The translations under genes were made by a program, and so were the position numbers. A model generated the notes under the pieces. The model was not told the origin of the DNA. It made no database searches and saw only the letters and a program-made list of their open reading frames with translations. From a virus: DNA of 64,000 bases. Shown piece after piece: positions 10,043 to 57,400 of the stretch; the first letter of the stretch is position 1; each line of letters begins with the position of its first letter. The stretch lies in the IMG/VR virus record IMGVR_UViG_3300027833_001310, positions 1-64,000 of that record; one strand, 5' to 3'.

Positions 10043-10648
10043 ATGGCAGACATAAAAAAATATAATTTGAAAGGCGTAGGTGCTAATGTAGAACTTGGTA
10101 AACAAGGTTCATATATTAGCGGTACATCAGACGCTGTTTCTTTCTTTAACAATACAGATGCATTACAAAAAGTAAGCATTGCAAATGCTACATTAGCCGG
10201 TCACGCTATTACTAAAGCACAACTTGATGATGTTGCTGGTGACTTAATACAGCATTTCACAACAGAATTTGACTACACTACTACTTCAGTTGATTTAGCA
10301 GGCGTAACATCAGGCTCTAGAATCATTGGCGTAACAGTTGATATTCCTACAGCATGGACAGCAACTAATAACACCGGAACTTTTGTAGAAGTTGGTGACT
10401 CAGGTAACCAATCTAGATTCATCGGCACTGGTGGCGTAGACATTAAACTTGCAGGACAATATCACAGTCAGTATCAATATGAATACGATGCAGCTGACAC
10501 ATTAGAACTAAATGTAACAGCCGGCGATGCAACTGCTGGTGTAGGTTCAGTTAGTGTAATAGTATCAAATGGTATACTAAGTGTAACAGATTACGGTGGC
10601 ATCCAGTCTTCGGCTGATGTTAACAGCGATCTCGGTAACATAGCATAA
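10043..10648 (+). CDS. Putative virion structural protein
   Basis: G/T/A-rich beta protein, late TAAATA upstream, paralog of next gene. Confidence 0.6.
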   Translation: MADIKKYNLKGVGANVELGKQGSYISGTSDAVSFFNNTDALQKVSIANATLAGHAITKAQLDDVAGDLIQHFTTEFDYTTTSVDLAGVTSGSRIIGVTVDIPTAWTATNNTGTFVEVGDSGNQSRFIGTGGVDIKLAGQYHSQYQYEYDAADTLELNVTAGDATAGVGSVSVIVSNGILSVTDYGGIQSSADVNSDLGNIA

Positions 10649-10658
10649 AGGATATAGT

Positions 10659-11198
10659 ATGAAGCAATACAATTTAAAAGGTGTTGGACAAACAGTTGAA
10701 CTAGGCAAGCAGGGACCTAAAGTTGTAGGTTCTGCTAACTCCGTAGCAATACAAGACAAAGACGGTAATGCTGAAAACTTAATTATGTCTGCTGGTACAG
10801 ATGCAGAGCATGCTGTTACCTTAGCACAGTTAGATGCAGAAACAGGCTTCCGAGTAATGACAGTTAACGAAACTGTTACTTACGATGGTGGGACACAATA
10901 CTTATTCACAGCAAAAGCAAATACTACTATCTTAGGTGCAATGATTGAGAAGACTGCAGGTAACTGGGCTGACTATGATGCATTTACTGATATTACTATT
11001 GGTGATGCTGCAGACAACGATAGATTATTTGACCAAGGCTGGACTCCGGACGGAACTCAAGCAATTGGTAGTACTCAACATAAGTACACTGCTGATACAG
11101 CTATATATGCGTATGTTACTCAAGGTGGTGCTACTGCTGGTGGTGCTAGAATTAGAGTGAAGCATGTAGGGCCTGACTTAGACCAAACGGCTCCATAA
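10659..11198 (+). CDS. Putative virion structural protein (paralog of 10043)
   Basis: Shared YNLKGVG..VELGKQG and HA.T.AQLD. Confidence 0.6.
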   Translation: MKQYNLKGVGQTVELGKQGPKVVGSANSVAIQDKDGNAENLIMSAGTDAEHAVTLAQLDAETGFRVMTVNETVTYDGGTQYLFTAKANTTILGAMIEKTAGNWADYDAFTDITIGDAADNDRLFDQGWTPDGTQAIGSTQHKYTADTAIYAYVTQGGATAGGARIRVKHVGPDLDQTAP

Positions 11199-11203
11199 TA
11201 ACT

Positions 11204-12028
11204 ATGAATATTTTCGATATTACAGAAGCAAAAGCAAAAGTTGTTCGAGCTAGTGATAAAAAGCCAAAGAAAATAAAGCCTTCCACAGGACACGAAAGCC
11301 CACATCCAATGCAAGGTAAACTTGTAGGAGAGGGCAATCGACCTCAGAAGCCAAAGTCTTACAGTGCAAGAAATCCAGTTGCAAAGAATATTGAAAAGTT
11401 CAATAGACCTGCAACACACATGGACAAGAAAAAAGAAATGAAGAAGAAGGGACCTAAAATCCAAATGGATGAAGGCCCTTTAGTTTTACAAGGCAAATCC
11501 GGTGTTAACGGTATGCTTGACAGATTTCTAGATACATGGAAAAGTTCAGATCCTTCAGAAGAACAGTACGCAGATTTAATGAAAGTACTCGGCAAACACA
11601 TAGAATTTCAAGACGGTAAGAGAGTTGTCCTCACAGACTTAGAAGAAGGCAATATTGGTAAAGCAGTAGGTGCATTAGCACTAGTAGCAGCTTTAGGATA
11701 TGCTATGCCATCTGCTAAAGATAGCCCACTAGGTAAAGAATTACAACTAGCCGCACAACAAGGTGACACTGTAGCAGAATACCATTTAGATAATTTAGAT
11801 CTTTATATGGAAGCAAGTGATCAACGAACAATGATTAACTTAAAAATTGCATACATTGAAGATTCACCAAGAGAAGATGTTAAAGCATACTTAGCCAAGA
11901 AAGCAGGTATCGAAGAAGCAAAGAGTCCTACAAGCATGGATTGCTGGGACGGTTACAAAAAGGACGGCACAAAAGCAGGCACTGGCAAAAATAAGGGCAA
12001 GCGAGTAAACAACTGCGTTCCTAAGTAA
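11204..12028 (+). CDS. Modular putative internal head protein
   Basis: MNIFDITE N-terminus; short modules ending in CWDGYKK...VNNCVPK. Confidence 0.55.
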   Translation: MNIFDITEAKAKVVRASDKKPKKIKPSTGHESPHPMQGKLVGEGNRPQKPKSYSARNPVAKNIEKFNRPATHMDKKKEMKKKGPKIQMDEGPLVLQGKSGVNGMLDRFLDTWKSSDPSEEQYADLMKVLGKHIEFQDGKRVVLTDLEEGNIGKAVGALALVAALGYAMPSAKDSPLGKELQLAAQQGDTVAEYHLDNLDLYMEASDQRTMINLKIAYIEDSPREDVKAYLAKKAGIEEAKSPTSMDCWDGYKKDGTKAGTGKNKGKRVNNCVPK

Positions 12029-12048
12029 CAACTTAAAAGGAATACAAC

Positions 12049-12330
12049 ATGGACACACTTACAACGATGCTCACCGACCGGGTGTGGATCTACACTGCAA
12101 TCGCAGGATCACTACTAGGTGCAGCTTTCCTAGCATACTTTAAAGGAACAAAAGCAGGTATATGGGCTTACAGTAAGTTTGACCAGTTCCTAGACTTCTT
12201 AGTACAACGTTATGGATGGACGTGGTTTAAACAGGACGAGAACGCTTGGCGTAAACGTTACCCTAAAGTAACTGCAAAAATTGACAACCTCGAAGCAAGA
12301 ATCGCAAAACTAGAAAACAAAAAAAAGTAA
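12049..12330 (+). CDS. Small membrane protein
   Basis: One TM plus C-terminal coiled coil; AAGGA SD. Confidence 0.65.
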   Translation: MDTLTTMLTDRVWIYTAIAGSLLGAAFLAYFKGTKAGIWAYSKFDQFLDFLVQRYGWTWFKQDENAWRKRYPKVTAKIDNLEARIAKLENKKK

Positions 12331-12360
12331 AATCTCTCTGTATTATTGATAAGTAATACT

Positions 12361-13023
12361 ATGGGATATTATAAAAGAAATAACGGTTTTACTAGAGGCC
12401 CAGCCTGGGCAGAACAACCTTTTCAACATATAACACATGAGTTTTGGCCCGACTTAACAAAGTTAAGGGAAGAAGCACTAGCGGTTAGAGATTCTAATGA
12501 ACATAGATTAACTGTACAAGTACCTAACGGCAGAGACGATGTAGATGATGTTGTATTGGACTTTCAATTTGTAAGCGATCATACGCCAGTACTGCAACAG
12601 CATTGGCAAAACTTTCAAGACTGGTTTGGTGAGACTGGAGCTGCATACTGTCAATATTTCTATATAGATGCAAATGCAGATTACGAATGGCACAGAGATA
12701 ACGTTCTAAGAGACATAGAATACGACCCAAGAAAAGTTCAAGAAACTACTACAGCAGAAATACCTGACAAATATAAAGTTAATTCACAAACTAACTTTCC
12801 AGTACAATGTGCTATTAATGTAGTATTAACAGAAGATGGTTCAGAATGCGAGTTTTATGATTTTGGATCTTATAAATATACGGCTGGAATATTAAATACA
12901 TCTCACTTACATAGGGTTTTCCCTTCGGAGCAGAGAATACTAGCAAGGATTTCTTTTTTAGAATTATTATATGAAGAAGTTATCCACAGAGTTAGAAAAC
13001 TAGAAAAGAGGAATAAAAAATGA
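12361..13023 (+). CDS. 2OG-Fe(II) oxygenase-like protein
   Basis: WHRD...CAINVVL...LNTSHLHRV...R; start moved to the ATG after TAAGTA. Confidence 0.6.
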   Translation: MGYYKRNNGFTRGPAWAEQPFQHITHEFWPDLTKLREEALAVRDSNEHRLTVQVPNGRDDVDDVVLDFQFVSDHTPVLQQHWQNFQDWFGETGAAYCQYFYIDANADYEWHRDNVLRDIEYDPRKVQETTTAEIPDKYKVNSQTNFPVQCAINVVLTEDGSECEFYDFGSYKYTAGILNTSHLHRVFPSEQRILARISFLELLYEEVIHRVRKLEKRNKK

Positions 13024-13178
13024 TAGATTGGATTAAAGCAAGATTAAAAGAAAGAACAAGTTGGGACGGTAGCGTTCTAATTGGCGGTGGTATTGTAATG
13101 ATACTAGCACCTATAAACCTAATTGCATACGGCATGATAGCATACGGCCTGTGGACAATTGCAACCAAAGAAGGATAA
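13020..13178 (+). CDS. Small two-TM (holin-like) protein
   Basis: Hand translation MIDWIKARLKERTSWDGSVLIGGGIVMILAPINLIAYGMIAYGLWTIATKEG; overlaps both neighbours. Confidence 0.65.
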   Translation: MIDWIKARLKERTSWDGSVLIGGGIVMILAPINLIAYGMIAYGLWTIATKEG

Positions 13179-13345
13179 TGGCAAAAGCAGCACAACGCAA
13201 AAAGAACAAGTCGTTAATTAACGGCACAGGAAGAAAGTGTACATCAACTGGTATTGGTGGTAGAGGACGCAAAGTAAAAATTGCTATGTCTACTATGAAT
13301 AAAAGTAAAAAACGTTGTATGGCTATGAGTAGGGGGCAAGGATAA
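13178..13345 (+). CDS. Small basic protein
   Basis: MAKAAQRKK...SRGQG; coupled stop/start. Confidence 0.6.
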   Translation: MAKAAQRKKNKSLINGTGRKCTSTGIGGRGRKVKIAMSTMNKSKKRCMAMSRGQG

Positions 13346-13557
13346 TGCCAACTAAATTTAGAGCAAGTGCTACTACTGTAAAACGTGGTACTAAAACAGC
13401 AGTAACAGAACACTATTATATTAGGAACACACCTAAAGAAGAACTTATTGAGTATCTTAATAATGGTCAAAAGCCAAAGGTAAAACAAAAATGTTCAAAC
13501 GAATTAGTTCGTAGAGGTATTGAAATTGTTTGGAAGGATAAAGAACCTGACTCATAA
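13345..13557 (+). CDS. Hypothetical protein
   Basis: 70-aa ORF, coupled start. Confidence 0.6.
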   Translation: MPTKFRASATTVKRGTKTAVTEHYYIRNTPKEELIEYLNNGQKPKVKQKCSNELVRRGIEIVWKDKEPDS

Positions 13558-13584
13558 ATTTGTATTTAGAAGATAAATACAATT

Positions 13585-16299
13585 ATGAAAATACATAATA
13601 TTACTGGACCATCGCAAATAACTGAACATGTTAAGGGTGGCCTCGACAGTTACTATCAGCTAACCAAAGCAAAACGTTTGGCAAAAGCAGACGGGCATGA
13701 CTATGACAAACTTCCTGAATACGATAGAGGTAAAGATCAACCTCACAAAGAAAAGTATATGGCTTTAGCAAAAGAAGTCAACGAAATGGACCAAGACGAA
13801 GTAGATACTGGACCAACTTGGAAAGATGATTTAGAAGATGCATTAGATGGTTATCCTGAATGGGCACATGAATATATCAAAGATGGTGTATGTCCTGAAT
13901 GTGGCGGTAATGGTTACATGGATGGTGACTACGAAAACGAAGATGGTGAAGAGAATGACGAGTGCAATGGCATGTATGACTATGATTGTGATGAAGGCGA
14001 AATCAGAGATAATACTTGGGCAGATGAATTAAAAAGCAAAGAGCCTGAAGCACCTAAACAACCAGCACCAAGCAAAGAACAAATTATGAAGATACTTCCT
14101 CGTTTACATGATGACTATGTAAAGACAGGAAGATACAATGCATTTGAATTAGGTGGCATACTTAAACAAATGTATCCAGAATTAAATAAAAGAGAAGCAG
14201 GTAGTTATGTAGCAGACTTCCTATCAAACTTCAAAGAAAGTGCTCAAGTAGAAGAATTAAACGATATAAGAAAAAGAGCCGGACTACCTATAAAAGAAAT
14301 AGAAGATAATGATTATGAAAAAGCATATGATTTTGAACCAACACCAGAAGCAGAAGCATGGTATAATTCTATAGTGGATCACGATGACCTCGATAACATG
14401 TATAACCAATGGGAAGAAGCATTTTCACAAGCCGACACTGAAGATAAAGTTGATGTAGCATTACATCATGTGCAAGGTTTATTAGCAGATGGGCCATTAG
14501 ACGATTATAATACTTTATGGCAAGCATGGGAACAAGATGAAGATATAGAAGATATGCTACCAAAATATCAAGCAATGGCAAAAAAATCAGCAGGAACTCC
14601 TGCACTTCCTATGATGGGAGAAGCAGAAGGTGATGACTGTAAAAAATGTAATGGCAAAGGAAAGATAGATTATCATTCCGAAGACGGTCCTAGCAAATGT
14701 CCAGATTGTAGCGGTAAAGGCAAGCAAAAGTGGAAGCCAGAACCAGTTAATTGGGGTAAGGTCAAAGAAGATGAAGGCGCTTATGCAAATTACGTTACTT
14801 ATGTTGGACCAAACGGAGAAGAATTAGGCACTGAAGATTACGATGGTGAATTAGAACCAGATATGATGGCTCAAATGGCATCAGATGAAGAATGCAAAAT
14901 GTTATGTGATAAACACAATATAGACTATAATGATACTATTGGTTGTTTGAAATTTGACGACGGAGAAGCAACAATGCAAGATGGTGAAGAATTACCAGAT
15001 GGCACAATAGCATTTTATGGTGGAAAAGATGGATCAATAGAAGTAGAAGAATTAAACGATATAAGAAAAAGAGCCGGACTACCTATAAAAGAAATAGAAG
15101 AAAATGAGCCCGGGTCGATGACCAGATATTTCTTACAACAAGACTTTACTCAAATGAGCCAAGGTAAAGCATCAGATATTGTAGGTGGAATTGCCGATGA
15201 AGTCTTCCCCAATTACGATATGCATGAAGATCCTTTAGATGGTGCTCTTGATGAATTGCATGATTTGTTAGACGACGAAACTATGAAAGGATATGATTTT
15301 GATAGAGGTGAAATGGATTATCCTGATACCAGTGAATTTTACTTATCTGACAATGATTATAAATCTTTACCAAAAATACAACAAATAGTACGAGCCAAGT
15401 ATATAGAAAGAATGAATGGTCCTGATATTAAAGATGAACTAAAGAATTACAACTTTACCAATGACAAACCACAAGAACTTCCAGGTATGAATGTACCTCA
15501 AGAATCAATTGAAGAAGCAGAAGAAAGCAGTGACGAAGTAATGGTTGCTAAAATGTTAGCAAAAGCATTAGGTGATCCTAATCGTTGGACTGAAATGTCA
15601 GCACCAGAGCTATACGCAGAACTTGAAAGTACTAATCCAGATGTAGCAGACATGATTAGCAAGGTTGCAAAGATGCTGTATGATGTTAAACTAGAAGAAC
15701 GAGCATACAAGGACGTTGGTGTTGCAGACACAGTCAAAGATCAACGTGGCAAAGAGTTTAACTTCGATAAAGGTAGTAAAAAGTTTAAGTCACAAGATGG
15801 CGAAGAAGCAGATGTTACTACTAAGTTAGGCAAAGACCTAATGAGGATTCGTAAGAATCAAATGAAGAAAACTACACCAAGTTATAAAACTAAAAAGAAT
15901 CAAGGACTAATGGCTTCATATGAATCTATAGAAGAAGCATACGGTGATAGCCATGAAATCACATTAGAAGATAACGAAGATTTTAATGATGTATTCGGAG
16001 TACTAGGCTACAGTTTATGTGAGCAAGATACATTCGAAGCAGAATACCAAGGACGTAAAGTTAAACTAAACAAGCCTATGCAAGGTGATGTTAAGAAGTT
16101 TAAGGTATACGTTAAAGATCCAAAAACTAAAAATGTTAAAAAAGTAAACTTTGGACACGGTGGAAGCAGTGTTAAAGGTAAGGCTATGAAGATTCGTAAA
16201 AATAATCCTAAGGCAAGAAAGAGCTTTAGAGCAAGACACAACTGCGACAATCCAGGACCAAAAACTAAGGCTAGATATTGGTCATGCAGGAAGTGGTAA
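13585..16299 (+). CDS. Large acidic modular putative internal head protein with CxxCxGxG zinc fingers and basic C-terminal domain
   Basis: CPECGGNG, CKKCNGKG, CPDCSGKG; two EELNDIRKRAGL; C-term KKVNFG..RKSFRARHNC..ARYWSC. Confidence 0.7.
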   Translation: MKIHNITGPSQITEHVKGGLDSYYQLTKAKRLAKADGHDYDKLPEYDRGKDQPHKEKYMALAKEVNEMDQDEVDTGPTWKDDLEDALDGYPEWAHEYIKDGVCPECGGNGYMDGDYENEDGEENDECNGMYDYDCDEGEIRDNTWADELKSKEPEAPKQPAPSKEQIMKILPRLHDDYVKTGRYNAFELGGILKQMYPELNKREAGSYVADFLSNFKESAQVEELNDIRKRAGLPIKEIEDNDYEKAYDFEPTPEAEAWYNSIVDHDDLDNMYNQWEEAFSQADTEDKVDVALHHVQGLLADGPLDDYNTLWQAWEQDEDIEDMLPKYQAMAKKSAGTPALPMMGEAEGDDCKKCNGKGKIDYHSEDGPSKCPDCSGKGKQKWKPEPVNWGKVKEDEGAYANYVTYVGPNGEELGTEDYDGELEPDMMAQMASDEECKMLCDKHNIDYNDTIGCLKFDDGEATMQDGEELPDGTIAFYGGKDGSIEVEELNDIRKRAGLPIKEIEENEPGSMTRYFLQQDFTQMSQGKASDIVGGIADEVFPNYDMHEDPLDGALDELHDLLDDETMKGYDFDRGEMDYPDTSEFYLSDNDYKSLPKIQQIVRAKYIERMNGPDIKDELKNYNFTNDKPQELPGMNVPQESIEEAEESSDEVMVAKMLAKALGDPNRWTEMSAPELYAELESTNPDVADMISKVAKMLYDVKLEERAYKDVGVADTVKDQRGKEFNFDKGSKKFKSQDGEEADVTTKLGKDLMRIRKNQMKKTTPSYKTKKNQGLMASYESIEEAYGDSHEITLEDNEDFNDVFGVLGYSLCEQDTFEAEYQGRKVKLNKPMQGDVKKFKVYVKDPKTKNVKKVNFGHGGSSVKGKAMKIRKNNPKARKSFRARHNCDNPGPKTKARYWSCRKW
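14246..14306 (+). repeat. 61-bp exact direct repeat, copy 1
   Basis: aagtagaagaattaaacgatataagaaaaagagccggactacctataaaagaaatagaaga. Confidence 0.95.
15041..15101 (+). repeat. 61-bp exact direct repeat, copy 2
   Basis: Identical to 14246..14306. Confidence 0.95.
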
Positions 16300-16400
16300 G
16301 AGTTAAAGAACCGCAGCATCCAGCAGAAGGCGAATACAGTTTAGACCAGTACGGTGAAGTAGTTGTATTCAAAAATGGTGTGTGGCAGTATCCCGCCTAG
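16293..16400 (+). CDS. Tiny hypothetical protein (35 aa)
   Basis: GTG start after AGGA; MVRVKEPQHPAEGEYSLDQYGEVVVFKNGVWQYPA. Confidence 0.45.
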   Translation: MVRVKEPQHPAEGEYSLDQYGEVVVFKNGVWQYPA

Positions 16401-16450
16401 TACAGCTCACAATGATTACATGGAAGTAGTTTTACCTACTAAATACAAGC

Positions 16451-17101
16451 ATGTTATATTCAAATGATTTTGAAAAACCCCATTATCTAGTTATCTCTTC
16501 AGTTCCAGAATCTAATAAAGATTTCGATCGCGGAGATTTCGACTTTACTGATCCACATGGATTCAAACTTAATTCTGTAGAAAAAGAGTTTTACAAAGCA
16601 AACGATATAAGAGTCGACAACGCTTTTGGTTCTGCTTGTGACCCACATCTTGCTATGGATTTAGAACACGAAAATGAACCTGCAAATAACGATAGATTTC
16701 AAATAGCTCATAGTTTTACACAGTATCGCTGCACCTTTAGGGGTGCTGCAAAAAAAGCTCTGGAAGAGCATGCTGTATGTGGCATATCACAAGCAAAACT
16801 ATTATTACAGATAAGGCCTAAGTGGGGCATAACTTTCCAAATGTATGCAATAAGTAAGGCAGATACTGTTTATGAATTATTGTCATTGGATTACAGTTAT
16901 AATTCATACACTGAGTTTAATAATAACGTCGATATGCTAAACGATAAACTAGTAAATTTAGATTGGAATGCGTATGCAGATCAAGTATACGATAGACGTG
17001 ATGAATGGCAGTTGGAAAATTATTATAATCAACGACAATGGAAATGTAATTTACTATTGGGTTTAGACACTCACTATGTGCCAATTACATCACTTAAATA
17101 A
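16451..17101 (+). CDS. Hypothetical protein
   Basis: 216-aa ORF with TAAATA-N5-ATG. Confidence 0.65.
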   Translation: MLYSNDFEKPHYLVISSVPESNKDFDRGDFDFTDPHGFKLNSVEKEFYKANDIRVDNAFGSACDPHLAMDLEHENEPANNDRFQIAHSFTQYRCTFRGAAKKALEEHAVCGISQAKLLLQIRPKWGITFQMYAISKADTVYELLSLDYSYNSYTEFNNNVDMLNDKLVNLDWNAYADQVYDRRDEWQLENYYNQRQWKCNLLLGLDTHYVPITSLK

Positions 17102-17643
17102 TGGATACATTATCAACTACAATACAAACCGATCGTCTTCAGACTGAGATGGATGCGTTTTTGGGTCATTATAACTTTTGGGAGTTACGGCAAATATCTC
17201 TTACTAGTTTAACTGGCGACGATGATTGGACTTGTTCTGTAGGTTCAGCACTAGCATTGCAGAAGCCAGAACGTATGTATAGTCAACTAAACAAATATTT
17301 AGAAGGCACATATATGGGCGAACTTATCAAAGAATACAACAAGTATTATAGATGGCGTCTACTACATATTCCAGCAGGGCAGTGCTACAGTGTACACTCA
17401 GATGCTTATACTAGTAAGATCAATAAACGAATACACATACCAATAACAACAAACCCTGATGCATACTTTTGTTACTATAGCGATAAGCCAGCAGACGGCC
17501 TTGAAACAACTGTAAAGTATCATCACATGCCGCTAGGTAGTGCATACGAAGTTAATACATCACAGTTACATAGTGCTATAAACTACGGTAAAACATCTAG
17601 ATATCATATGGTCGGTGTGAGATACGCTAAAGTAGATAAATAG
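17101..17643 (+). CDS. Aspartyl/asparaginyl beta-hydroxylase-like 2OG-Fe(II) oxygenase
   Basis: YSVHSD, RIHIPITTNP, NTSQLHSAIN, RYHMV. Confidence 0.75.
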   Translation: MDTLSTTIQTDRLQTEMDAFLGHYNFWELRQISLTSLTGDDDWTCSVGSALALQKPERMYSQLNKYLEGTYMGELIKEYNKYYRWRLLHIPAGQCYSVHSDAYTSKINKRIHIPITTNPDAYFCYYSDKPADGLETTVKYHHMPLGSAYEVNTSQLHSAINYGKTSRYHMVGVRYAKVDK

Positions 17644-17647
17644 TAGC

Positions 17648-19921
17648 ATGAAACAGGTTATTATATATCCAGGAAGATTCCAGCCAATGCTTTCGCATCA
17701 TGCAGAAGTATACAGCCAATTACAGAGTCAGTTTCCAGAAGCTGACGTATATATTGGAACCAGCGATAAAGTAGAAAGTGGTAAATCACCATTTACTTTC
17801 AAAGAAAAACAACTAATAGCACAGGCACACGGCATTGATCCTAGCAAAATATTGCAGGCAAAACGCCCTTACCATAAAGATGATTATCCTTTTGATGAGG
17901 ATAATACTGTTATTATTTTTGCTGTAGGCGAGAAGGATATGGATAGATTTCCTTTTAGTAATGTCAATTCTGAGACAGGATTAGACATGATGGTGAAAGA
18001 TAATTCCAAGCCAAAGTACTATCAGAAGATAAATACATATAGAACTGATCCAAAGCCAATGGCTGAACGTGGATACATAACACTTGCTCCTACTATATCA
18101 GTAGATAATGAAGTAGCAAGTGCTAGTGCTTTTAGAGATGCATTAAAAAATGCTCCAGATAAAGAAAGTGCTGAACAAGTATACACTAAGCAATTTGGAA
18201 ACTTTGATCCAAAAATATTTGAACTAATATACGGTAAAATTACAGGGCAAAACGATATGAACGAAGAACTAAATAAAATCAGAAAACTTGCAGGCATGCA
18301 GCCTCTAACAGAAAGTTTTGACCCATCAATGGAACCAAGCAGTGAGTCAACTATGTTTAACGATGCAATGGATGCATACGATGACCATGGTGAAGATGGC
18401 TTAGCACAACATTTAGGTATGAGCTCACAAGAGTTTGATCAAGAGCTTAATGAACTAGGCGCTGAAAAAGGTTTACATGCAGATGACAACCGTGACGAAC
18501 TAGTACAACTTCTTGTACAAGATCTTATAGACAATAGAGAAGTAGAGCAACATGAAGCAGTAGAAGAAGCTGCCGAAGAAGATACTAGAGAGATTGCAGT
18601 TAATAAAGCAATTCCACTTAGTGGTGATAGCATTTGGGACGAAAAGGGCGAAAATCCTAAGTCAGTAAATGTTGAAAGTGTTTCAGTAACTAACGATTTA
18701 GATGACGATAATTATTCATCTGTTAATGTTAAGCATGACGGTCCTTGGACTATATACACTGACACTGGTTTCGAAAAAGCAATATCAGAAATTGTAGGAT
18801 TCAAAGTCGTATTTACAGAACAAGGTATGCAAGAAGAGGGGATGGCAAGCATGGAAGGCAACACTGACGATATAGGTCAAAATGAAGACCTAGATAGAAT
18901 GAGACATTTAGCAGGACTCGAAGAAGCAGAAATGCCAGACTTTGATAAAGGTGAGCGTCCTAGTAATTCAAAAGAACGTGCCGCTTATCGTAAGTGGAAG
19001 AAAGACGGTTCTGCAAGTTCAAAAGATGACATGTCAGATGTAGTATCAATTAGTCCTAAAGACAAAAGAGATGCTGAAGCAAGACCTGCAAACGCAGCCG
19101 CAGCTGATCCATCTAAAGCACAATTTACAGATATTAATTTAGACACTATGAAAGTAGATGGTAAGTCTATTCCTAGTAGCCAACGTGCTAAAAGTATTGC
19201 AAACCAAATACCAGATAACGTAGACTTAAATGATCCAGCAGTTAAGAAAGAAGCATTCTTAAAGTTTACTGCAAAAAGACCAGACTTAATGCTTGGTGAG
19301 ATTAATGCACGTTTAACAAATGATGATGCAGGCTTAGCACTAAGCGATAGACTTAGTCCTATAGTAAGACAGTTAGAAGATAGTCGTAACATCATGGAAC
19401 TTGATAAAGAAGATAAAGCATTTGCTTTAAAAATATTAAACACTGCCATAAACAATATGGAATTAGTTAAATCTACAGACATTGACAAGCAAATTGACGT
19501 AGAGCCAATGCAAATGGATGTCGAAGACGAGCCAGAAATAGGCGACGACGAAATGGTACCAGTATTAGATGTAGAAGATGATGACACATTCGAAAAAGAA
19601 AGTGTAGATTTATCAAGCATCAGAGACGAGTACGGTATATCAGAAGAGCCTGAAGTTATTCAGAATAACGCATGTGAACAGTGTGGTAGCACAGAATGTG
19701 AGTGCGAACCAGGAACATGTGAGTGTGATCCAGTTGAAGAAGGTAGAATGAAAGACGTTATTCAGGATGCTATGGACATGAGTAGAGAAGAATTTGAACA
19801 AGCAAGACCCGGGTTTGATTATGATGAAGTACTTGCAGACTACGGTGATGAGTTAGACGAAGCAGTTGAAAACACAATTGATGTTGCTATAAGCGAGTTG
19901 AAGCAACTAGCAGGTATTTAA
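17648..19921 (+). CDS. HIGH-type nucleotidyltransferase domain fused to acidic modules
   Basis: IIYPGRFQP, SPFTFKEK, AVGEKD, SASAFR; three LAG-motif copies; Cys-rich CEQC..CECE..CECD. Confidence 0.7.
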   Translation: MKQVIIYPGRFQPMLSHHAEVYSQLQSQFPEADVYIGTSDKVESGKSPFTFKEKQLIAQAHGIDPSKILQAKRPYHKDDYPFDEDNTVIIFAVGEKDMDRFPFSNVNSETGLDMMVKDNSKPKYYQKINTYRTDPKPMAERGYITLAPTISVDNEVASASAFRDALKNAPDKESAEQVYTKQFGNFDPKIFELIYGKITGQNDMNEELNKIRKLAGMQPLTESFDPSMEPSSESTMFNDAMDAYDDHGEDGLAQHLGMSSQEFDQELNELGAEKGLHADDNRDELVQLLVQDLIDNREVEQHEAVEEAAEEDTREIAVNKAIPLSGDSIWDEKGENPKSVNVESVSVTNDLDDDNYSSVNVKHDGPWTIYTDTGFEKAISEIVGFKVVFTEQGMQEEGMASMEGNTDDIGQNEDLDRMRHLAGLEEAEMPDFDKGERPSNSKERAAYRKWKKDGSASSKDDMSDVVSISPKDKRDAEARPANAAAADPSKAQFTDINLDTMKVDGKSIPSSQRAKSIANQIPDNVDLNDPAVKKEAFLKFTAKRPDLMLGEINARLTNDDAGLALSDRLSPIVRQLEDSRNIMELDKEDKAFALKILNTAINNMELVKSTDIDKQIDVEPMQMDVEDEPEIGDDEMVPVLDVEDDDTFEKESVDLSSIRDEYGISEEPEVIQNNACEQCGSTECECEPGTCECDPVEEGRMKDVIQDAMDMSREEFEQARPGFDYDEVLADYGDELDEAVENTIDVAISELKQLAGI

Positions 19922-19923
19922 CA

Positions 19924-20268
19924 ATGAATGAAATACAAAGATTACAACAACTAGCAGGTTTATCAATCACTGAAGCAGAAACAGGTGACGAAGTTACTAA
20001 AACTGTAGCCGGTCATACTGATGATGAAAAAGATATGATTATGAAACAGTTATATCAAACAGGCAAGTACTGTGTAGAACTTTATAAGATGTTAGGTGAT
20101 ATGGATGAGAACACAGACTTCCCACATTGGTGGCAGGGTAAGATTGTTAAAGCAACTGACTACATTGGTGCAGCCAAACATTACTTAGAAAATGAAATTG
20201 AATCGCCTGACGTTGAAGTTACTGTAACACCAGATATAGAAGCCAACGATCCTTCAGGTGTTAGTTAA
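19924..20268 (+). CDS. Putative internal head protein, helical module
   Basis: MNEIQRLQQLAGLSITE then QLYQ..WWQGKIVKATDYI. Confidence 0.6.
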   Translation: MNEIQRLQQLAGLSITEAETGDEVTKTVAGHTDDEKDMIMKQLYQTGKYCVELYKMLGDMDENTDFPHWWQGKIVKATDYIGAAKHYLENEIESPDVEVTVTPDIEANDPSGVS

Positions 20269-20270
20269 GA

Positions 20271-21119
20271 CTAAATCCAGTCTGTATTATTAACTAGTTT
20301 ATCAGCATACTCAGGCCAGAATAGGCCTGCTCTAGGTCCACCATTACACTTACCATCGCTTTCGCCTGGTATCTTAATCCATAAAAACGCATCACATTTT
20401 TCTTCATCTGTGCCGCATGTAGGCGGAATACCTAAACTACGTCCTGGGGGATTACACCAATCATTGCCAAGCGGACCACTGCCGTTGCGGCTAGTGTCTA
20501 TAACAAAATGATCGTTTGGTCTTTGTTCGCATATTTGCAATGACCACTTCATACTTTCTTTTGTGCTTCTGAAATTGCTTACGTTTACACTAAAGCCTCT
20601 TACTTTATCATTGCTTACTATGTCTAACAACTTAGCAACCTCACTAGGTGCTAACCAATTACTATGTCCTACATCAACGTAAACAAGTGCGTTAGAGTTG
20701 CTTGTAAGCACGTCTAAGCCTTCTTTAAGTAAACTTAGTCTAGACTCAGCAACACTCTTATCCATTAGTGTACTGTGAGGTACAGCGTCTGGTTCGAATA
20801 TAACCATAGGTGCTCTATCGCCTATACCTCTACAAAATGCATGTAGGAAATCTAAATATGATTCTCTAGTTTTTGCACCACCTTTACTGTAATGTCCTAC
20901 ATCTCTTTCGGGTATATTGTATATTACAAGTACAGGCAATTGTGGATCAACACGTTTCATTAAACGTCCTAATCCATCATCGATGTTACAACTGTATTTG
21001 CCTTGTCTATCGCCGTACCAAAAACTTACTGGTTGCTCAAATATTTTTGCAACACTAGGATAAGCAAGTCTGTGGTCCTTTACTCTATCAAAGTTATTGA
21101 CCCAAAAGGGATAGTCCAT
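20271..21119 (-). CDS. Glycoside hydrolase family 6 (cellulase-type)
   Basis: VIYNIPERD, IFEPDA, YVDVGHSNWL, NVSNF, IDTSRNG, WCNPPG, WIKIPGESDG. Confidence 0.9.
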   Translation of the reverse strand: MDYPFWVNNFDRVKDHRLAYPSVAKIFEQPVSFWYGDRQGKYSCNIDDGLGRLMKRVDPQLPVLVIYNIPERDVGHYSKGGAKTRESYLDFLHAFCRGIGDRAPMVIFEPDAVPHSTLMDKSVAESRLSLLKEGLDVLTSNSNALVYVDVGHSNWLAPSEVAKLLDIVSNDKVRGFSVNVSNFRSTKESMKWSLQICEQRPNDHFVIDTSRNGSGPLGNDWCNPPGRSLGIPPTCGTDEEKCDAFLWIKIPGESDGKCNGGPRAGLFWPEYADKLVNNTDWI

Positions 21120-21931
21120 TATCCGTTATCTAGATTAGTTACATTTGTTGCAGTTAGTGGATGAGTGTTTTCAGTAGGATATGTAAAATGTTTTTTCAGT
21201 TCTGGCTTCAATGGAGCGTCCCATTCGCCTGCTTTACATTTCTCAATAGCCTCATCACTAATACCAGCAAGTTTCATTTCCTCATAGTCACTAAGCAAAT
21301 AACTTTTAATGTACGGAAGCATTTGACACGGACAAGTACCTGCCCAATGGAAGCCTAAGTCATTATCCATTGCTGGATTCTCATAGTCAAACATTTCCTG
21401 TTCTGGATTATAATAATAAGTTTTTGTAGTTGGTAACAGTTTGTATACTGTTAATCCTCTATCAGGAGTCCTAAACGCTGGTAGTGATGGCTTAATTAAA
21501 GTTCCGTCAGCAGCCGTACCAGGACTATAACTGTCAACTACAGCAGGATTGAACTTGTTAATCATGGACATGTCTAAACCATTAAGTAAATGTTGGCTTC
21601 TGTGTAAATGATCGATGTACTCACCTTCTAAACCTAATCCTTCGGATCTTCCTTCCATCTGGCCATTTGATGCTTCTAATCCTACCCTGTCTACATCAGG
21701 CTGGTAGTATCCGTATTTTTCACCCCAGTTCTCACTAATCCAATATTTCTCTACCTGCCAATCTGGGCCTTTGTTTATTAACTTAGTAACTTTGCCCTTG
21801 TATGTTTTAGTGTAGCCTTCTACTCCGCCGGAATGTGCTTCGTATACTAATTCTCCGTCAAGTAGTTCGCATGTTAATTTACCTGTGTTGCAATCTAAGT
21901 GCCAGTCCAGTAGTAAATGTGGTTTATCCAT
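21119..21931 (-). CDS. Hypothetical protein
   Basis: 270-aa ORF overlapping both neighbours. Confidence 0.65.
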   Translation of the reverse strand: MDKPHLLLDWHLDCNTGKLTCELLDGELVYEAHSGGVEGYTKTYKGKVTKLINKGPDWQVEKYWISENWGEKYGYYQPDVDRVGLEASNGQMEGRSEGLGLEGEYIDHLHRSQHLLNGLDMSMINKFNPAVVDSYSPGTAADGTLIKPSLPAFRTPDRGLTVYKLLPTTKTYYYNPEQEMFDYENPAMDNDLGFHWAGTCPCQMLPYIKSYLLSDYEEMKLAGISDEAIEKCKAGEWDAPLKPELKKHFTYPTENTHPLTATNVTNLDNG

Positions 21932-46221: not shown

Positions 46222-48735
46222 TTAGTCGGCCCATCTTCGTACAACATATTTTACTGTTACCGAAGTAGCCGGGTTCAATGTATTACTTACTGATATTGCT
46301 CCGTTTTCGGAAGCAAAGTTTGCTGCAAAATTTACATTACCAGTTAATGTACCTGAACGTGCATCTGTATAATTATCTACAAACACGATATCGTCAATAG
46401 TACTATCACCGGAATACATTAGTGTACCAACACGTCTATAACTGCCGGAACCTGTTGTTCCTTGCATACTATATTCTACAAACTGTGTGTTTACAGGATT
46501 AGAGCCACCGAACGGTACGTCCAATTCTGAAACTGTGCTATTGCCTGTTAGTATTGTTAATTGCTCTGGAGCAGTATATGCTGTTATTGCTGTACCTGCC
46601 GCTAGTGCTTCTGCTGTTAAGAATTCAATATTTGTTTTAATATTCATCAATCCTCTGATGTCAGTGTTAACTGATTCAAAGTATAGATTGTTTAATATTC
46701 TAGCAAAATCTCTTGCTTCTGTTCTTTCTTCAAAATCCATCTCACCAACTGCACCATTAATTTTGGTATCCCATTTAATAGGAAAATGTCCGTTACCTGG
46801 ACTTGCTGCTTCAGTGCTATTAAATTCTTTGTTTACATACACATTAGAAAAAATGTTTACTTCAGGGTAAGCCATTGTAGCACTAAGCCAATCTTCTAAT
46901 TTTGCTTTAACAGTTGAGTCAGTACGATCGTATTCATCAGATGTGAGTCCTAATGATGTTACTGTACTTGCTTCATCGTTATGTAATGCAAATTTAAATG
47001 GTAATTTTTGAACTGCTTCTGCGTGAGTAATATACATTTTATTAGCCTCACTTGGTATAGTAGAAATCTTAGGCCATAAATTAGCACCGTTAACTACTGT
47101 TTGTACTGCTACTGACGTAGTTGCCCCTGATAAATCATATGATGCAACTGGTGTTGCTTCAACTGTTGCACTCGATACAACTGGTCTAAATGTTAATGCT
47201 GTTGAATTAGCACTTGTAGAACCTGCTGTAGTCATTACAAAAGTATTTCCTGTTACAGCATTAACTGTATGACTACCTGATAATCCGCCGCCTGTTGAAC
47301 CTAGTACAATGCTACCACCTGCTAAGTTACCGTGTCTAGGACTTTTTACAATTATGTTACCTGCTACACCGTTCTTGCGTGTTACAAATGATAATAATTC
47401 TAAATTAGCACTTGCACTATAGTCTGCATAATTTGTTGTAATTGTAAGTTGTTTGTTAACTGTATCAATTGCAGTAATTGTTCCAGTATCGCCATTTAGT
47501 TGTGATAAATCAGAACCTGATTCGTCAATAAATAAAACAACATCGTTAACTTCTGTGTTTTCAACATTTTCCACTGTTAATAGAATCTTATTACTAGCAT
47601 TTTGTCCAACTGTTGTTATTTGTCTTGTTATACTTGATGCATTATTTGGCAGTGTAGCCGTTAATGTTTGGCCTGTTGAATTATATGCCGATACTGCTAA
47701 TACTTTACCTGCTGCTAACCAGTCAGACCCACCTTTAACATATACATGATTATATATACCCGCCGAGTCGTATAGTCCGTCTGCGTCAATTGAATAACTA
47801 CCTGTGATTAAAGCTCCTGCTAACGCAATAGAACTAGCTGATGCTGTTGATGTCACCCCTTCTACTGCTGTATCAACCTTTGTTAAGAATAATGTGCCTA
47901 ATGGTTCTGCATAAGTAGCAGTATTAGGTGCATGTTTTACGTCTGTTGCAACTTGGATATGTTTAAACTGCATACCGATGTACCCAATACCAATACCGCC
48001 TGCAACTCTAACATTGTCTGTTGAAAGTTGTCTGTAAGAGGTTATTTGTTTGTCAGCATAAAAACCAGGCTTTCCTGTTTTACCAATAGTGGTATTTGCT
48101 AGAGCTTCAACAATTGCTGTGTTAGCATAGTAAGATGTTGAAATTTCATCAGCACCACTTGGAGATGTTCTAAGTGAAAGTGTATGAGTATGATCTGATA
48201 ATGCTAAATTGCCTGTTTGTGAAAAGAAATAGTCATTACCGGATGAAATTGTTGCTACATTAGATGGGCTCTGAACTGTGCCGTTCTTGAGAACTGTTAA
48301 GTCTGCAGGTACAAAAACATTACCTGTTATGTTGTTTTTAAATTCAGCACCTAGTGTAATATTTGTAAATACTTTACCAAGTCTGCCGTATTCGTTTGCA
48401 GTTGAAGATGCGGCTGCGTCTGTTGCTGGTGTCCAACTTACACTATCTGTAACGCCGTCAAATGCTCCTTTATCATATACTTTATGGGGAACAATGAACT
48501 TAATCATTTGTACGTTGGCTATACTTGCTGTAGTACTCTGAGCACTTGCGGTCTTTTCAAAGTTACCAGTCTTATTGTAAATGTCAGATACAGCATCGGT
48601 TGTGTCTGCACCAATATAAATTTGTCTGCTGTCTGTAGCAAACCCTATTTCACCTGGACGCAACGGCTTAGGGAGATCTTGCTTCTGACCCCTGCGTTGT
48701 TGCATTCGTACGATTTTTGTTGTTTCTTCTGCCAC
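46222..48735 (-). CDS. Virion tail/baseplate protein with Mtd_N-like N-terminus
   Basis: RMQQRRG..DLP.PL..GEIGFATDSRQIYIG; T/S/G-rich beta body. Confidence 0.7.
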   Translation of the reverse strand: MAEETTKIVRMQQRRGQKQDLPKPLRPGEIGFATDSRQIYIGADTTDAVSDIYNKTGNFEKTASAQSTTASIANVQMIKFIVPHKVYDKGAFDGVTDSVSWTPATDAAASSTANEYGRLGKVFTNITLGAEFKNNITGNVFVPADLTVLKNGTVQSPSNVATISSGNDYFFSQTGNLALSDHTHTLSLRTSPSGADEISTSYYANTAIVEALANTTIGKTGKPGFYADKQITSYRQLSTDNVRVAGGIGIGYIGMQFKHIQVATDVKHAPNTATYAEPLGTLFLTKVDTAVEGVTSTASASSIALAGALITGSYSIDADGLYDSAGIYNHVYVKGGSDWLAAGKVLAVSAYNSTGQTLTATLPNNASSITRQITTVGQNASNKILLTVENVENTEVNDVVLFIDESGSDLSQLNGDTGTITAIDTVNKQLTITTNYADYSASANLELLSFVTRKNGVAGNIIVKSPRHGNLAGGSIVLGSTGGGLSGSHTVNAVTGNTFVMTTAGSTSANSTALTFRPVVSSATVEATPVASYDLSGATTSVAVQTVVNGANLWPKISTIPSEANKMYITHAEAVQKLPFKFALHNDEASTVTSLGLTSDEYDRTDSTVKAKLEDWLSATMAYPEVNIFSNVYVNKEFNSTEAASPGNGHFPIKWDTKINGAVGEMDFEERTEARDFARILNNLYFESVNTDIRGLMNIKTNIEFLTAEALAAGTAITAYTAPEQLTILTGNSTVSELDVPFGGSNPVNTQFVEYSMQGTTGSGSYRRVGTLMYSGDSTIDDIVFVDNYTDARSGTLTGNVNFAANFASENGAISVSNTLNPATSVTVKYVVRRWAD

Positions 48736-54414: not shown

Positions 54415-57400
54415 TAGTTACTACTGTCTACAATTGATGTATTTGCAAATGGATTTTCATTTGTTGTTACAAGATAGTTTGTCTTTGCGTGTAGTCTTAA
54501 CCCGGAACCTTCTAAGTCTTTAACGTCTTGTATAAATGTAAACGTCTGCTTTTTAAGATCTAAGAAAAGTATTCCTTTAAGATTACCACCACCTCTTTTT
54601 GCTGCAAGATAGTTATTAACATTAGACTGTGCTATGGCTTGCATTGCACCGGTAATGTTATTTTGTGCTAAGTTTTGTGCTATCTGGTTGCCAGCATTAG
54701 GTATTTCTGTAAAGATATTTGAAATAATATCTGCTATTTCTTTTTCTGCTTCAGGTACTAACTTCAAGAAAGCTGCAACATGATTTTGTTGCATACCTGA
54801 TTTGACTCTTAACACTGCACCCTGTGCTTCTAGTTCTTTAAACTTCTCATCATACTTTGTAAAGAATGCTGTTACTTTAGACTTGTATGAATCTGATACA
54901 GTAACTTGTCTGTCATTAAATCTAGCAGAATTTTTTCTTGTTGTTTTTAATTCAATTGGTTGACCGTCAATCATTAAGTCACCTTTGCCATCGTCAGCAC
55001 CTGATGATGCTCCCATGCCGCCAATTCTCTGTGACAATACTGAAAGTGCAAACTCACCTGGGCCAATACCATACTGTACAACTTCATTTAAGTCGTTAAC
55101 TAATTCTGTTATGTGCTCGTTGCCTTCCATTCCGTAACCAACAAATATCTCAGACATAGTATCAGTAGATGTAGACAACAATGTATCAACTCTAACTAAT
55201 TTATCTCCCTTCCAATCTATGAAAAGTTTTGCTCTTTCTGCTGGCGTCATTTCTATACTTGCAATAATCTTTGCAATTTGTTTAATTGCTTTCTTAACAT
55301 CCTCATCAGGTACTTCACCTAATTGGCTGCTTAAACTTTGTATTTTACCACCTACGCCCATATCATCTAACAGTTGTTCAATGTAGTTAACTAATTTATT
55401 AGTTTTTTCATCATCTGGTAAGTCGGCTAATTTTTTGATCAGCTCTGATTTACTTTCAGTTATTCCTGCTTTCTTTTTAGTTTCTGGGTGTACTTTGTTT
55501 TGTACAAAACCTTTGAATATAGTACGCAAATCAGTGTCTGGTCCACCGCCACTAGCTGCTTCTCTGAATGCTCTGATCATACTAGGATCTGGTACTACAA
55601 AGTATGCTTCCATTTGCGATTTTAAATCACTAGCAAGTAAAGGAACATTTAATAACTGTTTTATTTTCTTTACAGGTGAGTTGTCTGGTACAGCACCTTC
55701 TGTATATTTTGCTGCTCTGCCTGATCCTGACTTGTTAGGATGTTCAAATCCTTTGCCTTTCTTTTTCTTTTTACCAGGCGTACCGTAAGTAGTTAATAAT
55801 GCAGCCATATCTTGTTCTGCTTCAATAGTTTCATTTAATTTTTTCTTAGATACTATTAGTGCTTCGTTTATCTTCGTAGCATCAACTTTACTAACTATTT
55901 CTAACTGTTTTTTAAATGGTAATTTGTTAAAATTCTCAAACATGTTATTACTCTCTTCTATATCACTAAATCTTATATTCATTTCTTGCGCCATGTATTC
56001 TCTTTCTGATGCATCAGTTTCTTGGTGTGTTCCTACTATGAATGGACTCTTTTCCCCTGCAAGGCTAAATGCGTCTGGATTGAAATCTCTATCTCTGTAA
56101 GGTAGGAAGCCATGCTTCTTGCTAAAAGTATCTATTTTTACTTTAGCATCTAATGTCTGTTCTTGATATCTTTCGGCTTTTTGTTTTCTATGAATTATTA
56201 AATCTTTTATTCTTTTTATCTTTTCATCTGTTTCGGTATCTTCGTTAGTTCTACTACTTCCCTGTGCATGTGCAGGGTGATCAGCATCTATTAGGTCTGT
56301 AGTATCAACCCCGCCTGCTTTGTATGCTGATACTATCGATGATACTTCATCCCACTGTACAGGATTGCCACCGTTTTCCTTGTTGTACACTAATGCATTT
56401 AGAACATCTTGTTTTGCATTATTACTTGTTTCTAAGTTGTTAATCCATCTTGCTAGTTTTACAGCATTAACTCTTGGATCAGCCATGAAGTGACCGAATC
56501 CAGTGAACCACATTTTTTTATAGAGAGGAAAATCATTTTCCGCCATCTCAATTGCTGCTTGATTACTAAAAGTAGATGGGTCATTATCTGACGCATCTGA
56601 GGTACCTGTTGTGCCTAGTTGCTCTAATTCTTTTTCATAGTCGGCAACCATTTTAAGTTCGCCTTGAGCATCAATCATTCCTTCATTGTAATCATATAAT
56701 GCTCTGTATACTTCATTATGTTCATCGCGACTAATAGCTTTAAAATCTTCTGCTTTAAACTTTTTACCCGGAGGTGTCTTTATTGGAGCTCCTGATATAA
56801 GTTTGTTACCCATTTCTGTTTGGAGCCAATTGTAGTATGGTACTGGTAAAAACAATGCATCGGTGCCGTTGTACTTAACAGTAAATTCTGGTGTTGGTGC
56901 TTTTGCTACCTTAACTTTGAATGCGTTATTAAACGCATCAGCAAACTTTGTCATGTTATCGTGGTAAGGTGACCCACCAATATTTAACATAGGTACATAT
57001 TGTTTACTTGCTAAAAATTCTTTATAAAGAGATTCTGGTGTGAATCCAAAATCTTTCATTGCTTGTCTAAAGCCTGCTACTTGTTGCACTTTAACAGGAT
57101 TACGATTTTTCCCTGTTGCTATAGAACTTAGTAGATAACCAAAAGCAGTAAGACTGTAATCACGAGCACGATCATTCCAACTCTCTTCTTCTTTGATAAT
57201 ACTTTCTTCTGCGTTCTCTCTTTTAGATCTTGCAAGTGCATTGTATGCTGTAGCAAGAGCGTCTATAGCGTCGGTGTAATGATTTTTGCCCACCACACTT
57301 TTAAATGCATCTACTACTTTCTTATCAGTATTATCTGGGTCAATTCTACTAGATGCTCTTTCTTCTTGGTCTGGATCAATCGCATCTAAACTATTAACGA

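Follow-up and report, generated by a model that had tools for sequence, protein, structure and literature searches.

Sequence mostly does not reveal which proteins a phage packs in its head and then injects together with its DNA. The one classic rule for packaged proteins, which does not transfer to other groups, is the capsid targeting sequence (CTS) of phage T4, an N-terminal leader of approximately 10 residues of the MKTYQEFIAE type. In phage P22, the C-terminal coat-binding helix of the scaffolding protein gp8 is the contact to the shell, and CpmB of SaPI1 copies the C-terminus of the 80alpha scaffold, gaining entry to the same site. Encapsulins load diverse cargo into an HK97-fold shell using short, portable, terminal cargo-loading peptides. 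The CTS is present on the T4 internal proteins IPII and IPIII and is removed by the prohead protease gp21 (Mullaney & Black 1996; PMC9958956, PMC5694885). Propeptides of the head and ejection proteins of phiKZ, 201phi2-1, and SPN3US are cut at [S/A/G]-x-E (PMC5694885), and the scaffold-shell contacts of T4-type proheads are still unresolved (PMC9958956). Here we describe the LAG helix, a short amphipathic peptide encoded repeatedly in a 64-kb stretch of a contig from an uncultured marine jumbo phage (IMG/VR record IMGVR_UViG_3300027833_001310; this whole stretch is called the window). The helix adjoins candidate cleavage sites of a T4-type prohead protease, coincides with the C-terminus of putative scaffold proteins in related phages, and probably serves to load internal head proteins into the prohead.

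The window spans positions 1 to 64,000 of the 92,052-bp contig, for which CheckV estimates a completeness of approximately 25%. The lineage of the present contig is labeled G000, and the related contigs and loci compared with it are labeled G0xx and Lxxx. By protein similarity, the contig belongs with the PA5oct/Rak2-like jumbo phages, and its DNA similarity to cultured phages was negligible. Pfam and PHROGs gave no family for the motif or for most of the modules; matches among the modules were limited to the nucleotidyltransferase (NTase) fold, DnaJ-like Zn ribbons, DUF7230, phrog_7595, and a weak DUF5754 match in one relative. The ESM Atlas returned only unnamed viral clusters, and our literature search found no description of the motif or of a scaffold-tail cargo tag in these phages.

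Results

The LAG helix and its copies in the contig

The motif is an amphipathic helix of approximately 14 residues with a Gly cap, (M-x-E)-x-h-x-x-h-[RKQ]-x-L-A-G-h, in which h is a hydrophobic residue; a shorter form is E-[LI]-x-x-h-[RKQ]-x-L-A-G-[LIM]. The strict regular expression [DEQNST]-h-x-x-h-[RKQHLM]-x-[LIMVR]-A-G-[LIMV] was run on the open reading frames (ORFs, named by their start positions) of the 92-kb contig and gave 7 matches: two in ORF13585, two internal in ORF17648, one in ORF19924, and two beyond the window. When the residues of the ORFs were shuffled (1000 shuffles), the mean number of matches was 0.077 and the maximum was 2. Seven matches against approximately 0.08 expected, together with the conservation of the motif in hundreds of relatives, refute for the strong copies the view that the motif is a chance or compositional artefact of acidic, Leu-rich proteins. 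We give that view next to no credence, and it could apply on its own to two KKAGI strings described below.

ORF17648 (17648-19921, +) encodes a 757-aa protein with an N-terminal cytidylyltransferase/NMNAT-like NTase (aa 1-200), followed by variable modules, and has no CTS-like start. Its first LAG helix, ELNKIRKLAGM followed by QPLTE (18266-18313, +; aa 207-217), lies directly after the NTase domain, and its second, DLDRMRHLAGL followed by EE (18887-18925, +; aa 414-424), lies in a low-confidence linker between modules. The protein ends with a third copy, ISELKQLAGI and then the stop codon (19889-19918, +); this copy was missed by the strict expression (as SELKQLAGI at the terminus) and was counted separately. 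The 114-aa product of ORF19924 (19924-20268, +) has a LAG helix at its N-terminus, EIQRLQQLAGL followed by SITE (19930-19974, +; aa 3-13). After it come a disordered linker and a helical hairpin (GHxDxE ... FPHWWQ), and the protein ends in DPSGVS. ORF13585 (13585-16299, +) encodes a 904-aa multi-module protein. Its parts are a CTS-like start (MKIHNIT..ITE), Zn-ribbon module 1, inserted module 2, and acidic module 3, and its C-terminal domain (phrog_7595) is basic and contains Cys. It contains two identical copies of ELNDIRKRAGL followed by PIKE, an I-x-E site, at 14254-14298 (+; aa 224-234) and 15049-15093 (+; aa 489-499). Beyond the window, ELHDVLRLAGI occurs in ORF 90286-90711 (-), and a 954-aa ORF at 64300-67164 (-) ends with the C-terminal copy SLQEMKSLAGI. 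Synonymous positions differed among all copies except the duplicated ORF13585 pair, which indicates conservation at the protein level and selection on the peptide.

A preliminary description of this DNA, made from the sequence of the window alone, had quoted a series of motif strings, and all of them were recovered in place. The KKAGI strings that it included as copies, in ORF11204 and in a 1622-aa ORF, are weak and do not rise above chance on their own. The first, AYLAKKAGIEE (11879-11917, +), is a degenerate copy situated between the conserved domain of ORF11204 and a mobile CW...C mini-module. It lies at a true module end: the L002 ortholog terminates there with AYLAKKAG, and distant homologs have FLRKQAKLPE. 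The second, KKKAGITE (55455-55478, -), is indistinguishable from chance. A further weak LAG-like string, YEEMKLAGISDE, was found at aa ~215-225 of a 270-aa ORF in the opposite strand block (21119-21931, -).

The mini-module at the end of ORF11204 (11942-12025) is a basic segment of approximately 28 residues, C-W-x-G-[YH]-K-K ... G-K-R-V-x-x-C, that moves between different cargo-type proteins. It was also found at L002:3151-5265, L015:8073-9719, L034:1820-3844, and L004:586-1293, and it is preceded in each context by a CTS-like leader or a hydrophobic-x-E site.

Conservation and position of the helix

In 80 related IMG/VR loci, we found 134 motif matches, of which 97 were non-redundant: 32 at the N-terminus, 10 at the C-terminus, and 55 within the protein. 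Even among proteins that are only ~40-60% identical overall, the peptide is invariant. Thirteen columns were invariant among 32 homologs of ORF17648; 11 of these are in the NTase domain, and the remaining two are Gly216 of the first LAG helix and Gly756 of the C-terminal one. The C-terminal copy recurs in ORF17648 orthologs on many contigs, and the second copy (DLDRMRHLAGL) is variable among homologs. In regard to ORF19924, the N-terminal MNEIxRLQQLAGh is the most conserved part among 90 metagenome relatives. M1, L7, Q8, L10, A11, and G12 are invariant in one set (22 sequences) and nearly so in another (72 sequences), and the helical hairpin is also conserved. The segment after the helix varies, and some relatives have the Zn-ribbon module of ORF13585 inserted in it. 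The last six residues, DPSGVS (20251-20265), are nearly invariant in the 72-sequence alignment and form a second short terminal motif.

The AlphaFold model of ORF19924 has a helix at residues 3-10, disorder at 14-23, and a confident helical hairpin (predicted local distance difference test, pLDDT, >90), and a Foldseek search of this model against the PDB gave no match. In the model of ORF17648, the enzyme domain (1-200) is followed by the LAG helix (201-214), a low-confidence break, and folded blocks at 232-405. The second LAG helix is within a low-confidence stretch (408-431), after which come more blocks and a long acidic disordered region, and the last LAG copy forms the end of the terminal helix. 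A helix-extension-helix assignment (SAP/HeH or Rho_N-like) was rejected, as the Gly is not followed by a conserved second helix.

The helix precedes the ORF19924-type core module in each of its contexts: in 34 stand-alone genes, in fusions behind two different modules (9 and 2 cases), and in 3 fusions to the end of the NTase protein. This indicates that genes fuse and split exactly at the helix. The motif had been proposed to sit at the seams between unrelated modules. This proposal holds for ORF17648 and ORF19924, in which the modeled helix lies by a low-confidence linker between folded blocks, and across the 80 loci the motif is independent of position and marks points of gene fusion and fission. 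In ORF13585, the motif is facultative at the seam, as most orthologs have none at the corresponding place.

A family of 66-aa proteins in loci L053-L067 (for example, L053:10603-10803) begins with M-E-I-E-E-L-K-R-L-A-G-I-Y-E, so that the tag is directly followed by I-x-E. The 842-aa multi-module protein gp079 of Flavobacterium phage immuto (L001:3065-5590) has a CTS-like start, MKKLIRIVE, and contains an ORF19924-type hairpin domain and then a second, partial copy; its gene is a few genes upstream of the terminase.

The helix at the C-terminus of scaffold proteins

Family searches detected no prohead protease or Gp23 family on the 92-kb contig or on seven related contig fragments. The contigs G010 (250 kb) and G011 were retrieved with the virion protein that the 92-kb contig encodes at its right end, and both encode a Peptidase_S77 protease (PF03420, 3e-27 and 8e-26; phrog_207). 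A T4-type protease is also present in PA5oct. In G010, the portal gene is followed by a 268-aa acidic ORF, the protease gene, a 370-aa coiled-coil ORF (phrog_10922), and the gene for the major head protein (phrog_138). The 370-aa ORF, which is in the scaffold position, ends in EIDVIRKLAGLSK. The ORF after the protease in G011 ends in EMATLRKLAGLS, which has the same flavor as the ORF17648 copies. Over its full length, the G010 protein has 48% identity to PA5oct gp330. The gp330 gene has the head maturation protease on one side and the major head protein on the other, and its product ends in VEELRRLAGIK. The G010 protein is also 34% identical to 121Q gp602, which is annotated 'scaffolding (T4 gp22-like)'.

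The same arrangement was found in G002, a complete 166-kb T4-like contig that has the ORF19924 core domain. There, a 594-aa ORF without a family match occupies the portal position and is followed by the protease (phrog_207), a 412-aa acidic helical ORF, and the major head protein; the 412-aa ORF ends in PIVESNDAFLRMQKLAGII. Two small proteins of G002 start with the tags EFKRMQKLAGL-INE and ELLRMQLLAGV-ITE, which nearly match the scaffold end AFLRMQKLAGII; the start tag of immuto gp083 is likewise near the scaffold end. In the scaffold position, immuto gp067 ends in SRWQKLAGIIK and the ORF of Microcystis phage Mel-JY01 ends in ERMKKLAGIVK. The G002, immuto, and Mel-JY01 ends share R-[MW]-[QK]-K-L-A-G-I-[IV]. 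G005 likewise has the motif at the C-terminus of the ORF that separates the protease gene from the major capsid protein gene, and a 484-kb uncultured phage has the variant scaffold end RMQKLADIS. An L-A-G-[IL]-[IL] end was present in 119 of the 120 close metagenome relatives examined, and the other one had LVGII. Among 1.84 billion representatives, phmmer matched 3060 clusters, and the best 148 of these were inspected. Of those 148 representative clusters, 120 have h-A-G-h plus 0-3 residues at the C-terminus, and 117 of them have hydrophobic-x-E 5-12 residues upstream of the helix.

These results indicate that, at the level of sequence, the LAG helix is the scaffold protein's own conserved C-terminus. 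The preliminary description had taken it for a scaffold-docking helix. Its portable amphipathic character stands, but the helix is not merely a docking element, as it equals the end of the scaffold itself, so that cargo and scaffold tail probably share one receptor. The co-variation of scaffold and cargo flavors across lineages, judged by eye, was not clean, because the R-M-Q-K and h-R-K flavors are both present in the G000 lineage.

The immuto gp067 gene (L096:6627-7868) is annotated 'DNA polymerase phi-like', which is probably a low-complexity artefact. Its product contains an internal tandem duplication, the copies of which end in KAKKAGITGHG, reminiscent of the weak KKAGI strings of the window.

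Glu sites flanking the helix

T4 gp21 prefers L/I-x-E. Head proteases of the T4 family cleave C-terminal to Glu (PMC5694885). We counted [LIVM]-x-E sites starting 0-4 residues from the last motif residue in the non-redundant copies from the 80 loci. Such a site was present in 81 of the 86 copies having downstream sequence, whereas [LIVM]-x-D was present in 5 of the 86. The two acidic residues have the same frequency in these proteins (10.2% each), and the control rate of [LIVM]-x-E was 19%. The residue following the site Glu was mostly A, D, or S. On the upstream side, a hydrophobic-x-E (typically M-x-E) ended at the helix start in 47 of 75 copies (control, 10%). Sites were present on both sides of the helix in 40 of 65 internal copies, which suggests that the tag itself is probably excised. 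The spacing between helix and site drifts and the site is retained; by an eye count, it was kept in ~15 of 18 independent protein contexts. The earlier claim that the motif precedes [IL]-x-E sites is thus borne out in the sequences, with Glu and not Asp at the third position, and the sites on the upstream side extend it. The putative capsid proteins keep a T4-like L-x-E site at their N-termini (HLSE followed by A in G010 versus FLTE followed by A in T4 gp23), and the scaffolds contain 23-28 [LIV]-x-E sites versus 2-7 [LIV]-x-D.

The main rival to a loading function is suggested by the same sites. The helix could be an exosite for the prohead protease that recruits or orients the enzyme and marks the places to be cut, with other signals, for example CTS-like N-termini, targeting the proteins to the head. 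The helix almost always adjoins Glu sites, often on both sides; the scaffold, which is the main protease substrate, carries the helix together with the upstream site noted above; and ORF13585 has a separate CTS-like leader. We nevertheless consider a protease-docking role unlikely, because the scaffolds with their 23-28 candidate sites have one LAG helix, always at the extreme C-terminus, and purely C-terminal copies have nothing downstream to cut. Furthermore, ORF17648 and ORF19924 have no recognizable targeting signal other than the LAG helix.

Virion proteins carrying the helix

In a scan of the whole PA5oct genome, the motif was found in the scaffold plus three further proteins, gp281, gp249, and gp149. 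The gp281 protein, encoded just upstream of the terminase, has an N-terminal NINDILRLAGV-QAVKE and an internal LDEISKLAGI-SNVEE; gp249 has EIDRIKKLAGI, and gp149 has a looser match. The PA5oct record carries a virion note from electrospray ionization tandem mass spectrometry on all three (3/3), and the scaffold is without it. PA5oct has 93 virion-associated proteins and 461 coding regions in its genome (PMC7318152). The probability that three of three carriers are virion proteins by chance is ~0.008. The virion status of motif carriers, on which the cargo proposal depended, was therefore found for every non-scaffold carrier of this phage. PA5oct gp282 is homologous to ORF90724 of the contig, and ORF90286 lies between a virion protein and the terminase, which indicates that the LAG-bearing ORF90286 occupies the place of gp281. 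In 121Q, the single motif match is in gp560, which is annotated as a structural protein.

The virion data also bear on the possibility that the motif is a generic interaction or oligomerisation helix that binds a host factor, a phage chaperone, or a ClpX-like ATPase, and that its occurrence on the scaffold is coincidental or reflects self-association only. This explanation leaves the detection of all PA5oct carriers in virions, the E-specific flanking sites, and the exclusive association with late or virion gene neighborhoods unexplained. Even though the helix is short and amphipathic, a ClpX-like ATPase is encoded at 841-2109 of the contig, and exposure at N- or C-terminal ends resembles degron logic, we regard a generic helix as quite improbable. 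A ClpX-degron function was ranked low, since it accounts for neither the Glu sites nor the scaffold link.

The ORF13585 cassette and CTS-like leaders

Both LAG copies of ORF13585 are inside a 67-nt direct repeat (99-100% identical; 14246-14312 and 15041-15107, +). The repeat copies are 795 bp apart and bracket an in-frame 795-bp cassette that consists of the LAG helix and module 2 with a Zn ribbon. The cassette is missing from 5 aligned ORF13585 orthologs, which suggests that it was recently inserted or duplicated by way of the sequence that encodes the tag. The L037 ortholog has a shortened ELQRLAGM-EE at the seam between modules 1 and 3.

An exact repeat bracketing an in-frame cassette that orthologs do not have, together with the many module combinations beside the motif, could also be explained by a DNA-level recombination handle that serves in-frame module shuffling, with the peptide as a passenger. 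However, all other copies vary freely at synonymous positions and keep the peptide, even across proteins as divergent as those described above, and codon-level conservation exceeding that of the amino acids was not observed across copies. We thus hold this explanation to be very unlikely, and module shuffling is better viewed as a consequence of the shared tag.

N-termini resembling the T4 CTS, M-[KNR]-h-x-[DE]-h-h-x-E, were found at the ORF starts 11204, 13585, 49879 (-), 50219 (-), 53153 (-), 53684 (-), 54414 (-), 61104 (-), 62210 (-), and 63010 (-) of the window and at 90724 (-) of the contig. The leader is kept in ORF13585 orthologs as MKxxxhhTE followed by G, A, or S. The sequence GATAAATA at ~13568-13587, 5 nt before the ATG of ORF13585, is a T4-late-promoter-like box that leaves no room for a Shine-Dalgarno sequence.

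Other genes of the contig

The window also encodes a ribonucleotide reductase (RNR), the ClpX-like ATPase, UvdE, a glycoside hydrolase family 6 (GH6) enzyme, a subtilase, tail-fibre-like proteins, and several proteins of 'virion structural protein' PHROGs, and the right end of the contig encodes a terminase and further virion proteins. The GH6 (cellulase-type) gene in this phage contig is at 20271-21119 (-; Pfam 1e-49). Two adjacent small ORFs (10043-10648 and 10659-11198) have a common N-terminus, YNLKGVG.VELGKQG, which resembles the Mtd_N/tail-fibre N-terminal domain that also begins ORF 46222-48735 (-).

Discussion

The computed properties of the LAG helix are its motif, its conservation, its independence of position, its Glu-specific flanking sites, and its identity with the C-terminus of the scaffold. 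We think it probable, with some reserve, that the helix is a portable copy of the C-terminal helix of the gp22-type scaffold and that it loads internal head proteins into the prohead, after which the protease removes the tag and separates the modules. In the assembling prohead, the LAG helix would bind the same site as the scaffold tail, and this site may be on the T4-type major capsid protein, at its inner face, or on the core. It would thereby recruit internal head proteins from the N-terminus, from the C-terminus, or from between modules. The T4-type prohead protease, once activated, would cut after the [LIVM]-x-E sites flanking the helix. This cutting would remove the tag, as occurs with T4 CTS peptides and scaffold fragments, and would also split the multi-domain precursors ORF13585 and ORF17648 into their modules. 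The binding partner, the actual cleavage, the packaging of the contig's own proteins, and the function of the modules after injection are the parts of this scheme that we infer.

The analysis likewise showed that the lineage has a head module with a T4-type protease, scaffold, and capsid protein and, from the PA5oct record, that motif proteins are located in the virion. With the portable helix, the Glu-specific sites, and the conservation, these findings largely uphold the idea of cargo polyproteins put forward in the preliminary description, with the exception of two of its elements, the helix of ORF13585, which is facultative, and the weak KKAGI strings. The modules, taken there for small effectors that are released, are at most candidate effectors.

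Several observations weigh against a loading function. In most ORF13585 orthologs, modules 1 and 3 are joined without a LAG helix, which indicates that the helix is facultative and is not required at that seam, and this protein already has a CTS-like N-terminus. The contig is without a protease, scaffold, or capsid gene, and its link to a head module is made via sister contigs that are 64-76% identical in the shared virion protein. G010 has only two motif copies, and the scan of 121Q gave no motif enrichment. The scaffold of 121Q, gp602, ends in a divergent variant, ELDVLSGINKK (LSGI), and T4 gp22 ends differently, in VYAKVASRF. The record for PA5oct concerns presence in virions, not processing. 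Finally, the 97 non-redundant copies are phylogenetically related, and p-values calculated from them overstate their independence.

In broader terms, we see an about even chance that the LAG helix represents a position-independent, scaffold-mimicking, self-erasing capsid-loading peptide that is common to the PA5oct/Rak2-like jumbo phages and a very large family of T4-like aquatic phages. Strings of unrelated small domains would then be packaged as polyproteins, released in the head, and exchanged between genes as cassettes. If this is true, the tag would provide a sequence rule for predicting the internal and injected proteome of uncultured and metagenomic jumbo phages and a natural means of directing foreign proteins into phage heads. 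It would also explain how multi-module 'polyprotein' genes arise by cassette shuffling and would point to a defined peptide-receptor pair in T4-type proheads. PA5oct is a cultured relative with three carriers and the scaffold, so the question is tractable now.

Comparison with known systems

Like the encapsulin cargo-loading peptides, the LAG helix is a short portable peptide that would load diverse cargo. The encapsulin peptides differ from it in sequence and are not removed by proteolysis, and encapsulins have neither a scaffold nor DNA packaging. The P22 gp8 and CpmB systems resemble the present one in that a second protein has the scaffold's extreme C-terminal helix. Unlike in those systems, copies of the LAG helix are found on many unrelated cargo proteins of the phage itself, at any position, and are coupled to protease sites, and capsid binding by the helix is a prediction.

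The phages phiKZ, 201phi2-1, and SPN3US are also jumbo phages in which many internal head proteins are processed after Glu by a T4-related protease, some of them at several sites. Their propeptides are long and mutually dissimilar, and no shared helix has been reported for them, in contrast to the LAG helix. Moreover, the P3 residues are small in these phages and hydrophobic here, and the phages belong to a different clade.

The T4 CTS is similar in that a short peptide on unrelated carriers brings non-essential proteins into the prohead core and is cut after Glu, as we predict for the LAG helix, and the present contig also has T4-like M-K-h-x-[DE]-h-h-x-E leaders. The LAG helix differs from the T4 CTS in that it has no sequence similarity to it and occurs internally and at the C-terminus, not at the N-terminus only. 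It is also identical to the scaffold C-terminal helix, which has not been reported for the T4 CTS, and it marks the seams in multi-module precursors.

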